Source of the DNA: Candidatus Heimdallarchaeota archaeon
GTDB taxonomy: Archaea > Asgardarchaeota > Heimdallarchaeia > Heimdallarchaeales > Kariarchaeaceae
Reading direction: 5' to 3'
DNA length: 32,000 bases
Assembly (NCBI GenBank): GCA_030149205.1
Contig: JASBSB010000006.1
Span: forward strand, 390,001 to 422,000
Numbering within the stretch: position 1 is the first letter of the stretch; every line of letters begins with the position of its first letter. The position numbers and the translations under genes were made by a program. Of the stretch, positions 13,666 through 20,134 are shown one piece after another. The notes below the pieces were generated by a model. It worked only from the letters and a program-made list of their open reading frames with translations, did no database searches and was not told the DNA's origin.

Positions 13666-14562
13666 TCAAATATCCTTTGTTGGAAATTCTGAGGTAAGAG
13701 CCCATTTGTATCCTTTTTTTTCAAATAATTCAATAAATTTTTGTTTATCTTTTCCTCTGGTTCCTTTTTTATCAATCAAGAAAAACTTGTTCGGACCAAG
13801 TGTCTTGATATACGCCTGATCTATCAAAGATTCAGTAAAGTAGGCGTGATTGTGTTTTGGAACCACATGTCCCAACATAAACATCTTCTTTTCCACTCTT
13901 TTAATGAATCCAGGGCAATAATGTCCACCACCCACTCCAATTGCTGTAGTATCAGGCAATTCAAATTGAATTTTGTTTTCCCAATACTGAATTGTTTCTA
14001 AAATCACCTTTGCTACCACCAATGTTGCCTCCTGATCCTCCCACTCTGTTTTGGTCCCTCCACATTCAATAAATACTAATGGTGTACTCAGGCTTGTTGG
14101 CCCATGGTGAGTGCATTCAAAACCAATCCAGTATTCGTTCTCCTTTATTTCTGTAGCATGAATTTTTAGGTGATGAAAGGCAAAATATAGTACGTCAGCT
14201 GGAGTGTAAGAGAGCTGAGATTCTTTGCCACTGTTTCCAAACGTTGCTCCCCAGTTTCCAGTTGAATGTACAAGCAGAGCCTTCATTCCCGCTTTAGAAC
14301 TGTGTTTTGAAGCATATATGAGCAAATTTGCTGTCACACCCTGTTCAAGAAAATCGGATTCAATTTGAGATACTGGTATAGTTAATATCCCATTATTTGC
14401 AAGACTAGAAATATAGTAACTTCCTCTTGGCCAATGATTCGGAGGATCAAATTTTGTTTCTTTGGTGAAGTTTGCAAGTTCTAAAAGGTGATTCTTCATA
14501 TTTAAGCCTGCTTCATCAAGGGCTGAGACAATAATTAAGACATTGAATTCCATAGGTCTCAC
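13666..14562 (-). CDS. dtdA: D-aminoacyl-tRNA deacylase (archaeal DtdA/GEK1 type)
   Basis: SKHSS, HSTGNW, ECTHHGPT, FIECG and GVGGGHY motifs. GTGA overlap with the ftsY stop. Confidence 0.88.
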   Translation of the reverse strand: MRPMEFNVLIIVSALDEAGLNMKNHLLELANFTKETKFDPPNHWPRGSYYISSLANNGILTIPVSQIESDFLEQGVTANLLIYASKHSSKAGMKALLVHSTGNWGATFGNSGKESQLSYTPADVLYFAFHHLKIHATEIKENEYWIGFECTHHGPTSLSTPLVFIECGGTKTEWEDQEATLVVAKVILETIQYWENKIQFELPDTTAIGVGGGHYCPGFIKRVEKKMFMLGHVVPKHNHAYFTESLIDQAYIKTLGPNKFFLIDKKGTRGKDKQKFIELFEKKGYKWALTSEFPTKDI

Positions 14563-15470
14563 GGGATTAATTGATCCACAAACACATCTGCATTGAATTC
14601 TTTAAGATCATCATATGACTGTCCAACTCCAAGATACATAATTGGTTTTCCAATTGCTTTTGAAACAGAGAGTGTTGCACCACCTTTCACATCTGAATCT
14701 GCTTTGGTCATGATAACTCCGTCAATTCCTGCAACTTCATCAAATGTCTGTGCCTGACGAATAACATCATTTCCTGCCAAAGAGTCTCCAATGAATATTT
14801 TTATGTCAGGTTCTGTTTTCTCAACCAGTTTACGAAGTTCCTGCATCAGATTGTAATTATTCTGCATTCTTCCTGCTGTGTCAATCATAACAACATCTAT
14901 TCCTTTCGAATATGCGTGGTCTAAAGCATCTATTGCAACTGCAGTTGGGTCACCTCCCTTTTGGTGAGCTATGGTCTTAATTTTAAGGTTTTCTCCATGT
15001 TTGGTTAATTGGTCTATAGCACCTGCTCTAAATGTGTCTGAGGCAGAAAAAACAACTGAAAATCCCTTATTTTGTAACATATATGCCAGCTTTGCAAGGG
15101 TCGTGGTCTTTCCAGTTCCATTGATACCCATTATAACAATTACGTAAGGATCTCCTTCCTGAACCTTTTGCTTAACTTCAGCAACTAAGTCTCTCCTTTT
15201 TTCGGGTTCAATGATAGATCGAATTGACCTTCTGAGCCCTTCTTTCAGCATTGGTCTTGGGTCTCGGAATCTCTCATACTCTGTTTTATTCTGAATCAAC
15301 TCCTTCTTTAGTTTTTTACCAATTTCTTCGGCAACCTCAACTCCCACCTCATTTTGTATCATTAGATTGATAAGCTCCTGTACTGGTTCTCTAAGCGAAT
15401 TTTCATCCAATGTCTTGAATTTAAATTTGTTAATGAGCTTGTTTAAGCCATTTCTCAGTCTATCAAACAT
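14559..15470 (-). CDS. ftsY: Signal recognition particle receptor FtsY
   Basis: GINGTGKTT, DTFRAGA, DTAGR, TKAD, GVGQSYDDL. Start at ATG 15470 (MFDRLRNGL). Confidence 0.95.
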   Translation of the reverse strand: MFDRLRNGLNKLINKFKFKTLDENSLREPVQELINLMIQNEVGVEVAEEIGKKLKKELIQNKTEYERFRDPRPMLKEGLRRSIRSIIEPEKRRDLVAEVKQKVQEGDPYVIVIMGINGTGKTTTLAKLAYMLQNKGFSVVFSASDTFRAGAIDQLTKHGENLKIKTIAHQKGGDPTAVAIDALDHAYSKGIDVVMIDTAGRMQNNYNLMQELRKLVEKTEPDIKIFIGDSLAGNDVIRQAQTFDEVAGIDGVIMTKADSDVKGGATLSVSKAIGKPIMYLGVGQSYDDLKEFNADVFVDQLIP

Positions 15471-15625
15471 CTTTATTTGAATCACTGAGATTTCCCATAA
15501 GAAGATTGTTGTAAAGTCTCAGAGATTTAATTTGTATACTGACGTCATTAGAATATCTCTTTTCTTCTGTAAAAATTTGTTATTCAACGAACTCTTAAAA
15601 AAAGGTAAAGTGTAAGGGGTGTTAT

Positions 15626-15883
15626 ATGACTGAGGCAAAAATCTATAGAGTACAAGGTCACTATAGAAAGAACAAAAGAAACATCCCGTTAACCATGGAC
15701 ATAAGAGCAACCAAGGAACGTGAAGTTCTTGAAAAGGTGTTTGCAGAAGTTGGTAGCAGACATGGTGTAAAAAGAAAAGATATCATGATACCAAAGAAGG
15801 GTGGCTTAACTGTCATCAAAGATCCTTCAGAATCAAGAATGAAAGAGTTTGAAGACCTAGATAGCGAAGATTTTGAAATGTGA
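15626..15883 (+). CDS. rpl18a: 50S ribosomal protein L18Ae/LX (eL20)
   Basis: KIYRVQG...DIRATKEREVLEKVFAEVGSRHGVKRKDI; followed by pfdA as in other archaea. Confidence 0.88.
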   Translation: MTEAKIYRVQGHYRKNKRNIPLTMDIRATKEREVLEKVFAEVGSRHGVKRKDIMIPKKGGLTVIKDPSESRMKEFEDLDSEDFEM

Positions 15884-15891
15884 TGTGTTAG

Positions 15892-16356
15892 ATGTCAAAC
15901 TTACCGCAAATTGACCCCAAAAAAATTAATGAACTGCAGGGAGCATTACAACAATTACAAGCCCAAAATAATGCGTTAGAAGAACAAAGAGAGTTTTTCC
16001 TCAGAAACATCTCGGAGCTTAATGTTACCTTAGATACATTAAGGGGACTTAAAGAGCCAGATTATAAACAAGATATAATGATCCCACTTCCAGGAGGTGT
16101 TTATTTAACTGGAAGGATCACAGATTGGGAACGTATGTTAGTAAATGTTGGGGCAGGCACACTACTTCCTAAATCACTTGATGACTCTATAAAAGTTGTT
16201 GAAGAAAGAATTAAAGGGAGTAAGAATTTGGTACAGAGAATAACAGAAGAGCTTGCTAAAGTTGCAGAACAGACAAGGTCTATTCAAGGGGAGATTCAAT
16301 CTTTGCAATCTGGTAACTTCGGAATTCAACCTGACACAAAAACATATTCTAAATAG
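15892..16356 (+). CDS. pfdA: Prefoldin alpha subunit
   Basis: Coiled coil, then beta-hairpin IMIPLPGGVYLTG...MLVNVGAG, then coiled coil. Confidence 0.9.
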   Translation: MSNLPQIDPKKINELQGALQQLQAQNNALEEQREFFLRNISELNVTLDTLRGLKEPDYKQDIMIPLPGGVYLTGRITDWERMLVNVGAGTLLPKSLDDSIKVVEERIKGSKNLVQRITEELAKVAEQTRSIQGEIQSLQSGNFGIQPDTKTYSK

Positions 16357-16413: not shown

Positions 16414-19338
16414 TCATATCTGTGAGCCAAATTTTCTGTAGATTAGTTTCATAAGTTCAAGAATCAGAATGGGGGACACTGCTGCAAGAATTACAAATAT
16501 CCAATCTACCAGACTTAGAGCAATTAAGGCAATATTAAGTCCTAGAATACCGAGTGTGTTCTGGAAAAATACAGAATACATGAGAATCACATGCATAGCA
16601 GGAGCGAATAGCACTAAAAACCAAATTAATAATCCACTTTGTTTCATTGAGGTAATGATATCTTGGTTTATCCTTCTAATTGAAAATATCATAAATGATT
16701 CTGAGAGATAAATAATCGTTATTAATATTGTTCTTGCCTTGGCTTGTTCATATGATACCGGTAATAGAGGATTATTATGCCCTGAGTATAATGTTGGGAG
16801 AAATCCAGAAAGGTTTTCCGCATTGACTGGTAAAACACCTGTGTATGTCAGGTAATAAGATAACCCAAGGATCAAGCTGAATGATAGTGCATAGATTGTC
16901 ATTGTAACAGTTAAATTTCGACTCAATATGTTGTCATGTTGCCGAGGTTTAAGCTTCATAGTATCATCCGCAATTGTGTCAACGATTAGGATCATAGGTG
17001 GAATCCCATGTACAATACTAAAAATATACGCACGTTGAATGTTATTCAGTAGAAATAGGTCTGGGATAAAGGAGGAGATAATGTATACCAACCCCTCAGC
17101 TATGTTTATTGCAATAAAGAAAAAGATTATCATCCTTATTTTCTCAAATAAGGCCCTTCCTTGTTCTACCCCATCCACCAGGCTTACGTAAGAATCATCT
17201 GCCAGTATTATGTCTGCTGCTTCTTTTGCAACCTCAGTTCCTGTTATACCCATGGCTATCCCTGCATCTGCTCTGGTTATAGCTAGTGAATCATTTACTC
17301 CATCTCCAGTCATAGCCACAATATCACCTCGTTGCTGATACTTGTCCACTATGACTAATTTATCCTGTGGTGAGACACGGGCAAACACAGACACCTTAAA
17401 GAAATCCTCATCGCTTAATTTTGAAATATCCTTTCCTTGGATTACGATTTCATCGGGATCTAGAACACCTACTTGTGTAGCAATTGTTCTTGCGGTATCC
17501 GGAGAATCTCCAGTGATCATTATCGGAAAGATTCCAGCACTATCTAATTTTTTCACAGCAATTTTTACATTTGGACGTGGAGGGTCTAAAAGACACACGA
17601 AGCCAATAAGTACTAATTCGTTCTCCATCCACTCTCGTTCCTCTTCTGGAGATTTGGCTTGTGGTTCCTCATAGAATGCTCTGTAGGCTATTGTTACGAC
17701 TCTGTAACCTAGGTTGGCAAATTGTCTGATATCGTTTAATATTGATTCTTTTGTGCTTTCTTCCAGCGGTTTGACATTTTTTGTTCCCTCATTGCCATAA
17801 TAAGAACACTTCGGGATCATTACTTCTGCAGCCCCCTTTGAAAATAACATCAAATCACCCTCTTCATGGTCTCTAAATAGCTTGCTCATCCTTTTAATTG
17901 AGGAATTAAATGGGTAAGACTTTAGAAGTTCGTATCTGTTGGTAATATAATTAATATCTAACTTTGATCTATAGCCAAGCACCAACAGAGCACCATCTGT
18001 TGCATTTCCAAATACTTCCCAAGAAGTTAATCCAGCCTGTCCATAGTTATCCTCAATAACTATGGTGGCATCATTGTTTAATGTAATGGAGGAAAGAATG
18101 AGTTCTAAAGAGGAGTTACGTGCAACTATATCCAATTCATCAATAACCAAGCCATTTGTACCATTGATATCGTATCTATTGTGCTCGTCAATCGGATAGA
18201 CATTAGCATTTCCCTCTGAGTTGAAGCTGACACCATAGTAATTTTCTGTGTCCCAAACCCGAGTAACAGTCATCTTTGATGTGGTCATCGTACCAGTCTT
18301 GTCAGAACATAACACAGATGTTCTCCCGAGAGTTTCAACCACTGATAGCTCTTTAACTATCACTTTCTTTTTAGCCATATTTAAAACACCAGTGATCAAG
18401 ATTATTGTAGTCAATAATGGGATATTAATTGGTATCACAGACATAGCGGTAGTTATACTCGAACTTAGGTCTCTGGCAAAGATCTCAATTGAATAGTTAT
18501 GTTTTGAACGCTCGTAGATTTTATAGATCATTGAAACAATTAGAAAAAACAACATAATTGAACCTAGTCTCTTACCTAGCAAGTTTATCCTTCTTCGGAG
18601 AGGGATGTCCATTGTTTGCATTTCAGAAATCTGGCTTGCAATCTGCCCAAGCTCCGTGTTATTTCCAATTTGTGTTACTATAGCCTTCGTCGATCCAGTT
18701 TGGACGAAAGTACCAAGATACAGCATATTTTTTCTTTCTGCCAATGGGGTATCTAGGGGGAGCCCTGCTTCGCCATCTTTTGCTTTGGTAACAGCTTTAC
18801 TTTCACCTGTTAAGGATGCCTCGTTTATGGTTAGGTCAGATGAACTAATGATTCGTAGGTCTGCTGGAATCCTGTCTCCTAAACCTAGCTCAATGAGGTC
18901 TCCTACGACAAGCTTAGTTGCTAAAACTTCCATTGGTTTACCATCTCGTATAACTTGGGTTTTTAGCGGAGCTAATTTTTTCAATGCATCCAATTTCTTT
19001 TGAGCTCTAAATTGTTGAAATATGGCAATTGCCATGTTAAATGAGATAATGAAAAACCAAAATGCAACCTGATTTATTATTTTTGGAACCCAAATAGAGA
19101 GAACAATCAGCACAGCTGTCATTATCAGGTAAATTGTGATTAAGGTGTCAAACAATGGTGCAAGGTAAATCTTCAATTTGCTTTGAGATTTAGTTACAAC
19201 TTCATTAGGCCCTAATCTCTTGGTTCGTTCATCCACATGTTTGTTAGTCAAACCATTTGATCGCTGAGTTTCTAATTTTTGTTCAATTTCTGATATTGAC
19301 AAATTATACTCATTATTAATTAATCTTAAACCCTTCAT
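16414..19338 (-). CDS. P-type ATPase, P2A (SERCA/PMR1)-like scaffold with atypical transport-site residues
   Basis: LTGES, CSDKTGT (phosphorylation site), KGAAE, DPPR, MITGD, ARVSPQDK and TGDGVND. M4 is PINIP rather than PEGLP. Confidence 0.92.
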   Translation of the reverse strand: MKGLRLINNEYNLSISEIEQKLETQRSNGLTNKHVDERTKRLGPNEVVTKSQSKLKIYLAPLFDTLITIYLIMTAVLIVLSIWVPKIINQVAFWFFIISFNMAIAIFQQFRAQKKLDALKKLAPLKTQVIRDGKPMEVLATKLVVGDLIELGLGDRIPADLRIISSSDLTINEASLTGESKAVTKAKDGEAGLPLDTPLAERKNMLYLGTFVQTGSTKAIVTQIGNNTELGQIASQISEMQTMDIPLRRRINLLGKRLGSIMLFFLIVSMIYKIYERSKHNYSIEIFARDLSSSITTAMSVIPINIPLLTTIILITGVLNMAKKKVIVKELSVVETLGRTSVLCSDKTGTMTTSKMTVTRVWDTENYYGVSFNSEGNANVYPIDEHNRYDINGTNGLVIDELDIVARNSSLELILSSITLNNDATIVIEDNYGQAGLTSWEVFGNATDGALLVLGYRSKLDINYITNRYELLKSYPFNSSIKRMSKLFRDHEEGDLMLFSKGAAEVMIPKCSYYGNEGTKNVKPLEESTKESILNDIRQFANLGYRVVTIAYRAFYEEPQAKSPEEEREWMENELVLIGFVCLLDPPRPNVKIAVKKLDSAGIFPIMITGDSPDTARTIATQVGVLDPDEIVIQGKDISKLSDEDFFKVSVFARVSPQDKLVIVDKYQQRGDIVAMTGDGVNDSLAITRADAGIAMGITGTEVAKEAADIILADDSYVSLVDGVEQGRALFEKIRMIIFFFIAINIAEGLVYIISSFIPDLFLLNNIQRAYIFSIVHGIPPMILIVDTIADDTMKLKPRQHDNILSRNLTVTMTIYALSFSLILGLSYYLTYTGVLPVNAENLSGFLPTLYSGHNNPLLPVSYEQAKARTILITIIYLSESFMIFSIRRINQDIITSMKQSGLLIWFLVLFAPAMHVILMYSVFFQNTLGILGLNIALIALSLVDWIFVILAAVSPILILELMKLIYRKFGSQI

Positions 19339-19833
19339 TGTGCACCGGATTAGTTATTTCTTCATTTTGAATACCCTTTTTAATCACTCATACATTTATA
19401 TGAATTATCAATTAGTTTTCATATTGATACAAACAAGGTTGAAAAAATTTAGGCTTTTTTACCGTATCACCAATTGAATCTTGTTTAGTAATCACCCAGA
19501 AGGCGCCCTCTCGGCGATAGGTTAGATATTCCATTGAAAACCCAAAATATTAGGCATATAACCCCCTTAACAAGGTTTTACATCTTCAGCCAATTAGAAA
19601 CCATTCTAAAGGCATTTGACATCCCCCCAATATTTTGTTCATATATGGCTCAAACCGTTATTTTTCACTATGATAAATGCTCTAAATTTACGAAAAACAG
19701 ACTGTGAGCCTAAAATAGAAATAAATCAGTTTATACAATTTCTAAGCATTAAAACTGTATTTTTCCCACCTATATAAGCTACGGCTTATTGTAGTGAAAT
19801 GAGGAAAAAAAAATTACGAAATTAGTCTTTCAC

Positions 19834-19925
19834 TGTCTAAAACTAGACATCAATAAAGTTTATATGTAAATTTGTCGTTAAAGACATAGGTAGTTTGTTT
19901 TTTCACAAATAATCTACCGAGGTGA
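19834..19925 (+). promoter_or_regulatory. Putative histone promoter and leader: palindrome, TATA box, 5'-UTR hairpin, Shine-Dalgarno
   Basis: tgtcta-aaac-tagaca (19834-19849); tttatatg (19859-19866); ggtag-tttgt..acaaa-taat-ctacc hairpin (19889-19918); gaggtga (19919-19925). Confidence 0.5.
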
Positions 19926-19930
19926 ACACA

Positions 19931-20134
19931 ATGGCAAAAAAGAAAGCAAAAGCCCCAACAGAAATGCTTGTCGTACAAAGCAAAGTTAGAGAATACGTGA
20001 AGAGTCTTGGTGATTACAACATCGCCAGCGACGTCATGGAATCTGTCAGTCAGAGAGTAGGTGCTCTTCTAGCTGATGCAGTCCGACGAGCAGAACAAAA
20101 CGGAAGAAAAACAATTAAGGGAAGAGACTGTTAA
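19931..20134 (+). CDS. Histone-fold protein of the short face-to-face/Bd0055-like type with Lys-rich N-terminal extension
   Basis: MAKKKAKAP then MLVVQSKVREYVKS...AVRRAEQNGRKTIKGRDC, with RKT....RD at the end and no alpha3 helix. SD GAGGTGA 5 nt before ATG 19931. Confidence 0.85.
   Translation: MAKKKAKAPTEMLVVQSKVREYVKSLGDYNIASDVMESVSQRVGALLADAVRRAEQNGRKTIKGRDC

Follow-up and report, generated by a model that had tools for sequence, protein, structure and literature searches.

Sequence and catalytic core of the P-type ATPase

The window analysed here is a stretch of 32,000 nucleotides from an archaeal genome (Candidatus Heimdallarchaeota archaeon, assembly GCA_030149205.1, contig JASBSB010000006.1, positions 390,001 to 422,000), and its subject is one gene, which encodes a P-type ATPase designated P0001 (Table 1). 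The open reading frame (ORF) starts with ATG and continues for 974 codons without internal stops. An earlier reading made from the letters alone (the sequence-only reading) had taken the host for an Asgard archaeon and the protein for a P2A-type pump with SERCA/PMR1-like cytoplasmic domains, a rewired ion site and a flippase-like motif in the fourth transmembrane (TM) helix (M4). The host was borne out as a member of the Heimdall group, and translation of positions 16414-19338 reproduced all of the motifs that had been claimed.

P0001 contains five Pfam domains of cation-transporting P-type ATPases, each scoring above its own cut-off; N- and C-terminal cation-ATPase domains, 10 predicted TM helices and the actuator (A), phosphorylation (P) and nucleotide-binding (N) domains make up its layout. 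On the general P-type model of the haloacid dehalogenase subfamily IC (HAD-IC; TIGR01494) it reached 242 bits against a cut-off of 62.3, and this score, together with DKTGT, TGES, TGDGVND and the N-domain lysine, places it in the P-type ATPase superfamily. TGES, DKTGT, TGDGVND and the N-domain Lys501 were invariant across 139 family sequences; among the 120 nearest homologues, the A-domain motif read TGES in 115 and SGES in 3, the remaining 2 resembling artefacts of a loose search pattern. An AlphaFold2 (AF2) model built on the family alignment had a predicted local distance difference test (pLDDT) score of 89.8 and a predicted template modelling (pTM) score of 0.83. The claimed likeness of the cytoplasmic domains to SERCA and PMR1 was backed by Pfam and NCBIfam profiles, by alignment to SPCA1 and by Foldseek, and the A-domain motif was indeed TGES instead of the DGET of P4 pumps. 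Judged by these motifs and profiles, P0001 is a catalytically competent P-type ATPase in which the machinery for ATP hydrolysis and phosphorylation is intact and P2-like.

Table 1. Coordinates in the window of the pump gene, its motifs and the region upstream of it
Feature	Position	Strand	Basis
P-type ATPase gene (P0001), complete, 974 aa	16414..19338	-	ORF list and translation
TGES, A-domain dephosphorylation motif (not P4-type DGET)	18799..18810	-	translation
DKTGT phosphorylation motif, Asp346	18289..18303	-	translation; invariant in family alignment
TGDGVND, P-domain hinge and Mg2+-binding motif	17290..17310	-	translation; family alignment
M4 motif P303-I304-N305-I306-P307 in place of PEGLP	18418..18432	-	translation, alignments, DSSP
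M6 AYIFSIVHGIPP	16996-17031	-	translation
His777 (M6) at SERCA Asp800 position, at M6 helix break	17008..17010	-	translation, alignments, model
M5 N745-I-A-E748, retained counterparts of the site I ligands Asn768 and Glu771 of SERCA	17095..17106	-	translation, alignment
M8 YLSESF	16693-16710	-	translation
Glu880 (M8), equivalent to SERCA Glu908	16699..16701	-	translation, alignments
Q108-Q109 at cytoplasmic end of M2; P2A consensus Q-E	19012..19017	-	columns discriminating family from P2A
592-bp intergenic region upstream of pump, common to a divergent small histone-like gene	19339..19930	.	Rfam search

The ion site in the membrane domain

P2 Ca2+ pumps carry PEGLP in M4, with Glu309 in SERCA, and the residues N796, T799 and D800 in M6. 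Two alignments served to assign the equivalent residues in P0001, one made with HMMER against human SPCA1 (8iww), the other made with MAFFT and including 105 PEGLP pumps. The M4 stretch SVIPINIPLL (18412-18441) places Ile304 at the position of Glu309 and Asn305 at that of Gly310, and in M6 Phe773, Val776 and His777 align with Asn796, Thr799 and Asp800, respectively; P0001 therefore has neither the PEGLP glutamate nor the M6 N-x-x-T-D by which P2A pumps are defined. Secondary structure assignment of the AF2 model with DSSP found the helix unwound at residues 302-304 in M4 and 777-779 in M6, both breaks coinciding with where P2 pumps bind ions. The entrance formed by M1 and M2 also differed from that of P2A pumps: the M2 pair Q-E has become Q-Q, the equivalent of Glu113 is a glutamine (Q113) and a glutamine of M1 is replaced by proline, while Y58, P61 and Y70 are further family-specific residues of M1.

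According to these alignments, Ca site II has been lost, its Glu309, Asn796 and Asp800 being replaced by Ile, Phe and His, respectively, and at the cytoplasmic entrance the acidic residues of M1 and M2 have given way to neutral ones; a site-I-like polar set, consisting of Asn745, Glu748, His777 and Glu880 plus Asn305, is fixed across the clade of homologues described below. The sequence-only reading had held that site II was abolished and that M5 N-x-x-E and the M8 glutamate were kept, and on both points it was confirmed, all three site II equivalents being replaced and N745-I-A-E748 and Glu880 being present. Since site II is abolished, P0001 is unlikely to be an ordinary Ca2+ pump, which supports the same reading's view that this is probably no normal Ca2+ pump.

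Conservation and distribution of the altered site

P-[IV]-[NSTA]-I-P was present in 120/120 of the nearest database homologues (41-63% identity), and the motif change is therefore neither a chance event nor private to this assembly; the sequence-only reading had named a private motif as one finding that would undo its case, and the homologue search it had proposed disposes of that objection. Among representatives at 50% identity, the signature was retained to ~33% identity with the query, and below ~450 bits it changed abruptly to PEGLP and N-x-x-T-D. In the 139-sequence family alignment Pro303, Glu748 and His777 were invariant, and Ile304, Asn745, Glu880, Tyr58, Pro61, Tyr70 and Gln109 were conserved in at least 90% of sequences. 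Position 304 was Ile in 134/146 family members and position 305 Asn in 124/146 or Ser in 18/146; Glu748 was found in all 146 and Asn745 in 142. At the position of Glu880 in M8, the prokaryotic PEGLP pumps compared had mostly Gln or a hydrophobic residue.

Within the phylum, 288 of 400 genomes gave a match at E 1e-150 or better (71 of the 90 high-quality ones), and many of the phylum's genomes have two family copies. All members with a named source, those of the most basal subclade included, were Asgard (Heimdall-, Kari-, Hod-, Thor-, Odin-, Hel-, Loki- and Promethearchaeota). The genome of P0001 encodes a second copy (P0047, G000:C2:464461-467286), ~55 kb from the gene and 51% identical to it. 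Head-to-tail tandem pairs of family pumps were seen in other Asgard lineages (5/5 sampled loci of Asgard family f20, and genus g5), from which we conclude that the duplication is old and has been maintained. Long forms within the family carry low-complexity inserts only, and public annotations of family proteins all read Ca2+ or cation ATPase.

A basal subclade from Loki/Hel-type Asgard archaea (P0149, P0203, P0274, P0275) has P-W-[NS]-F-P in M4 together with the M6 histidine and the M5 and M8 glutamates, and this P-[WF]-N-F-P group retains a P2A-like M1 (P-Q-I-F-D) and the M2 acidic residue. Because a new pocket is here joined to an old entrance, its sequences suggest a transitional form, in which the pocket would have been rebuilt first and the entrance later.

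Placement among P-type ATPases

The NCBIfam models ranked P0001 nearest to PMR1 (TIGR01522, 476.5 bits), SERCA (TIGR01116, 399.2) and ENA (395), with lower scores for P3A (315), P5 (224) and P4 (100.8) and ~220 or less for the P1B models. No equivalog cut-off was reached; P0001 fell ~300 bits short of both P2A cut-offs (476.5 versus 798.3 for PMR1, 399.2 versus 703.4 for SERCA), and the canonical pump of the same genome scored 717 and 703 on the same two models. P3A pumps (TIGR01647) were excluded by score (315 versus 615 bits), by the histidine at the aspartate position and by the missing M5 arginine, and P5 pumps (TIGR01657) by score (224 versus 618) and by a single proline before the isoleucine in place of M4 P-P-x-L-P. 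The best solved relatives were SPCA1 and LMCA1, and the top 50 Foldseek matches of the AF2 model were all SPCA1, SERCA, Na,K-ATPase, H,K-ATPase or LMCA1; with its cation-ATPase domains, its 10 TM helices and P2A pumps as nearest relatives, P0001 has the architecture and fold of a P2 pump.

A maximum-likelihood tree was computed from 81 sequences and 896 columns (40 family members, 37 PEGLP pumps, the P3A and P3B pumps of the same genome and a P1B outgroup). The clade was defined by M4 P-[IVFWL]-[NS]-x-[PVI], M5 N-x-x-E, the M6 histidine, the M8 glutamate and monophyly; P0001 has all four features and falls inside it (support 100). The family, a group chosen by its M4 and M6 residues, formed a single clade with a Shimodaira-Hasegawa-like approximate likelihood ratio test (SH-aLRT) support of 100 and a stem length of 0.49, arising from among prokaryotic PEGLP pumps, whose branching order is unresolved, and separate from the P3A and P3B pumps of its own genome.

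No description of the clade was found in full-text literature searches. An Asgard transporter census merely lists 'putative Ca2+ ATPase' orthologues (PMC7997004), and a 2023 review of P-type ATPases, in which the word 'Asgard' does not occur, states that undescribed diversity remains in prokaryotes, asks whether further families exist and regards P4 and P5 as restricted to eukaryotes (PMC10654040).

Gene neighbourhood and other pumps of the genome

The divergent small histone-like gene lies at 19931-20134; the intergenic gap is unusually long and AT-rich, with a TATA-like ATATAAA ~60 nt upstream of the pump ATG, and a search of 19339-19930 against Rfam matched neither a riboswitch nor any other element. 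Downstream of the pump lie housekeeping genes (15626-16356 and 13666-15485) for L18Ae/LX, prefoldin alpha, FtsY/signal recognition particle (SRP) receptor and D-aminoacyl-tRNA deacylase. The genes in the window give no functional link to transport.

Neighbour clustering across 33 family loci from ~30 genera found no conserved partner or operon, only lineage-local synteny: an S8 subtilase, a pantoate transferase, a major facilitator superfamily (MFS) transporter and an SCP2-like gene in one lineage, and a DUF362 gene in another. In Asgard family f31 (loci L036-L047) the pump was always flanked by a gene for an S8 subtilase-like protein of ~670 aa, in many cases no more than 200 bp away, and an SCP2 sterol-carrier-like gene recurred 1.5-3 kb away at 9 loci; this arrangement was not seen elsewhere in the phylum. 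A neighbour cluster of ATP-binding cassette (ABC) transporters was rejected, as its members were generic ABC components whose distances varied. Small GTPases of the Arf/Ras type lay near the first 3 loci inspected but within ~8.5 kb of only 4/33, a level attributed to chance; the 3.3-Mb genome of P0001 has 27 such genes, none of them near either family pump. Domain fusions gave no functional clue, the longer proteins being mis-fused eukaryotic Na,K-ATPase models or PEGLP double pumps and not family members. Four proteins from the set of representatives (P0152, P0185, P0244 and P0261, 1550-1700 aa) hold two complete P-type ATPases in one polypeptide, each with its own DKTGT; the N-terminal one has an unusual Pro-Ala/Ser M4, and the one after it is of the canonical PEGLP Ca2+ type.

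P3A pumps are otherwise known mainly from methanogens, fungi and plants. The genome of P0001 encodes one, alongside a canonical PEGLP Ca2+ pump and an MgtA-type P3B pump (the three lie at G000:C4:300512-302815, C4:836538-838598 and C8:381096-383081). The P3A pump (G000:C4:836538-838598) scored 941 bits against a cut-off of 615 and has P-V-A-L-P in M4, an aspartate in M6 and an arginine in M5; the P3B pump scored 902 against 611, and four P1B metal pumps were also present. The company of the Ca2+, P3A and MgtA-type pumps makes a different substrate for P0001 plausible, and since four P1B pumps are present as well, the clade is more likely to bring an additional specificity than to be a second route of Ca2+ export.

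Relation to P4 flippases

P4 flippases have DGET in the A domain and P-I-S-L in M4, with isoleucine at the position of the glutamate. The same motifs are given in the review cited above (PMC10654040). It was on this likeness that the sequence-only reading had suggested that P0001 could be a lipid or other non-cation transporter, a candidate intermediate toward P4 or convergent with it. On this proposal P0001 would move lipids or other amphipathic non-cations on a P2 scaffold, convergent with P4 or ancestral to it, and it can appeal to the isoleucine at the Glu309 position, to the Asn or Ser that follows (one subclade reads P-I-S-I-P and so resembles P-I-S-L) and to a host lineage that is the closest archaeal relative of eukaryotes. 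By alignment, however, only this isoleucine, plus Asn or Ser, resembles P4. Curated profile scores with controls were used in place of a tree containing P4 and P5 references: on the P4 model (TIGR01652, cut-off 431) family members scored 94-117 bits, no better than the 91-107 of P2A Ca2+-pump controls, and on the P5 model they scored 224-263 against 229-283 for the controls. No pump in 201 sampled Asgard genomes reached E 1e-50 on the P4 model, and the 50 best Foldseek matches were P2 pumps only, with no P4 flippase among them. The A domain reads TGES, and P-I-N-I-P keeps the second proline that P-I-S-L lacks, leaving the isoleucine as the only match to the P4 motifs.

Isoleucine at the Glu309 position is also found outside flippases, P3A H+-ATPases reading P-I-A-M-P. 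Because P3A pumps, the P-V-A-L-P copy of the same genome included, have an aliphatic residue there, the isoleucine is not specific to flippases, and because an invariant buried Glu, His and Glu are kept in the canonical cation pocket, an ion is a better candidate than a lipid. A profile of the flippase partner CDC50 (PF03381) had no match in this 93.5%-complete genome, where control genomes were equally silent. The clade roots in prokaryotic P2A pumps, its loci share no conserved partner gene, and the small GTPases found at 4 of 33 are about what chance would give. Taken together, the P4 and P5 scores, the tree, the Foldseek result and TGES all speak against the lipid transporter, which we regard as very improbable. 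We give just as little credence to the related idea that the substrate is bulky or amphipathic, either an organic cation or the head group of a lipid, and passes an Ile-gated M4; the clade would then be a prokaryotic analogue or distant forerunner of the 'large-substrate' P4 and P5 pumps of eukaryotes, present in the very lineage from which eukaryotes arose.

Candidate substrates

We reasoned that a bound cation is implied, because invariant buried carboxylates and an imidazole occupy the canonical pocket. P0001 would run a normal E1/E2 cycle and move one small cation other than Ca2+ in each, and His777 would either bind the cation itself or be an internal counter-ion. The bound ion would, as a first guess, be a divalent transition metal (Mn2+, Fe2+, Zn2+, Co2+ or Ni2+), favoured because the ligand set is one of oxygen and nitrogen, and as a second guess a proton passed along a Glu-His relay. 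In all, it appears likely that the clade is a large Asgard-restricted subfamily split from the prokaryotic P2A (PMR1/LMCA1-like) Ca2+ pumps and that in each cycle its members carry a single small inorganic cation that is not Ca2+. That it represents the first transition-metal or His-based proton pump on a P2 scaffold, and merits a subfamily name of its own, is a bolder proposal which we put forward tentatively and consider rather less probable than its failure, although it is more moderate and more probable than the Ile-gated pump for bulky substrates.

Several points weigh against such a pump for one small non-Ca2+ cation. The substrate is suggested by ligand chemistry alone, and the pocket geometry comes from alignments, a DSSP string and homology to SERCA. 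The tree was built without eukaryotic P2B, P2C, P2D, P4 and P5 references, and its P2A backbone is unresolved. Across the 33 loci there was no metal-related or other conserved neighbour, and neither an upstream riboswitch nor an informative domain fusion was found. The neutralised M1/M2 entrance would suit a divalent cation less well, and the four P1B pumps and the P3A pump of the genome leave no obvious gap to be filled for either of the two ions favoured here.

Two further alternatives were weighed against it. P0001 could still be a Ca2+ (or Mg2+) pump that works through the retained site-I-like Asn745, Glu748 and Glu880, with His777 as counter-ion, and it may, by analogy with the P6 pump CtpE, have an altered affinity or run in the direction of uptake. 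M5 N-x-x-E and the M8 glutamate are the site I ligands of SERCA, the public annotations of the family point the same way, and CtpE moves Ca2+ despite a replaced M6 aspartate (PMC10654040). Nevertheless, Glu309, Asn796, Thr799 and Asp800 are all lost, the scores lie far under the Ca2+-pump equivalog cut-offs (476 versus 798; 399 versus 703) and a canonical Ca2+ pump with PEGLP and a pump of the MgtA type are encoded separately in the genome. Histidine, moreover, is a poor ligand for both Ca2+ and Mg2+, and we judge this alternative improbable. An organic cation such as a polyamine might instead be held, as in P5B pumps, by the two glutamates and by family-specific aromatics, namely Tyr58 and Tyr70 of M1, Trp94 of M2 and Phe773 of M6; these substitutions around M1, M2 and M6 are the family's own, and the M4 acid is absent. 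The comparison is purely analogical, though, as the P5 scores do not rise above those of P2A pumps (224-263 versus 229-283), M4 has no double proline and no polyamine genes recur nearby, and we rate it as more improbable still than the Ca2+ or Mg2+ pump. Of the sequence-only reading as a whole, the part that stood is that of an abnormal Ca2+ pump on P2 machinery; the flippase, or P4 intermediate, did not.

It is the binding site in the membrane that defines a P-type ATPase subfamily. The clade to which P0001 belongs is found phylum-wide in Asgard archaea, often as two copies per genome, and is strongly conserved, with an ion site that has no characterised counterpart; it is apparently an undescribed, P2A-derived and Asgard-specific subfamily with a rebuilt single ion site. 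Knowing its substrate would give a textbook pump family a new specificity class and would bear on how the closest archaeal relatives of eukaryotes manage ions or metals. The tempting link to the origin of eukaryotic lipid flippases is removed as unsupported.

Comparison with characterised pumps

The prokaryotic and eukaryotic P2A pumps (Listeria LMCA1, SPCA1/PMR1, SERCA) are the best sequence, profile and fold matches of the family, with which they share domain order, 10 TM helices, TGES/DKTGT/TGDGVND, an unwound M4 and M6 and M5 N-x-x-E, the M8 glutamate being SERCA-like. In contrast to them, the family has PINIP for PEGLP, F-x-x-V-H for the M6 N-x-x-T-D and Pro or Gln at the M1/M2 entrance where P2A pumps are acidic, and it forms a separate Asgard-restricted clade. 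P3A H+-ATPases (AHA2/Pma1, and the copy in the same genome) likewise have an aliphatic residue at the Glu309 position and retain both M4 prolines, and one can conceive of a single-site mechanism in which the partner charge is built in; unlike the family, with its M6 histidine and its glutamates in M5 and M8, the P3A copy of the genome has an M6 aspartate and an M5 arginine. P4 flippases (ATP8A1/2, Drs2) resemble the family in the isoleucine at the Glu309 position and the small polar residue after it (P-I-S-L against P-I-N/S-I-P), but differ in that the family has TGES, the second M4 proline and acidic and histidine residues in the pocket.

Two prokaryotic groups offer looser parallels. The P1B-4 pumps for Co2+, Zn2+ or Fe2+ (sCoaT/PfeT type) also have a conserved M6 membrane histidine at the canonical site, which in these transition-metal pumps is described as an internal counter-ion (PMC10654040), a precedent for histidine in the transition-metal sites of P-type pumps; the likeness is one of analogy only, since they have 8 TM helices and S-P-C in M4 and belong to a distant clade. 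The P6 ATPases, exemplified by CtpE of Mycobacterium, likewise form a prokaryotic branch that has P2-like traits and another residue at the position of the M6 aspartate (PMC10654040), a likeness drawn from their description and not from sequence comparison; CtpE, unlike the family, is bacterial, keeps PEGL and has isoleucine rather than histidine in M6.

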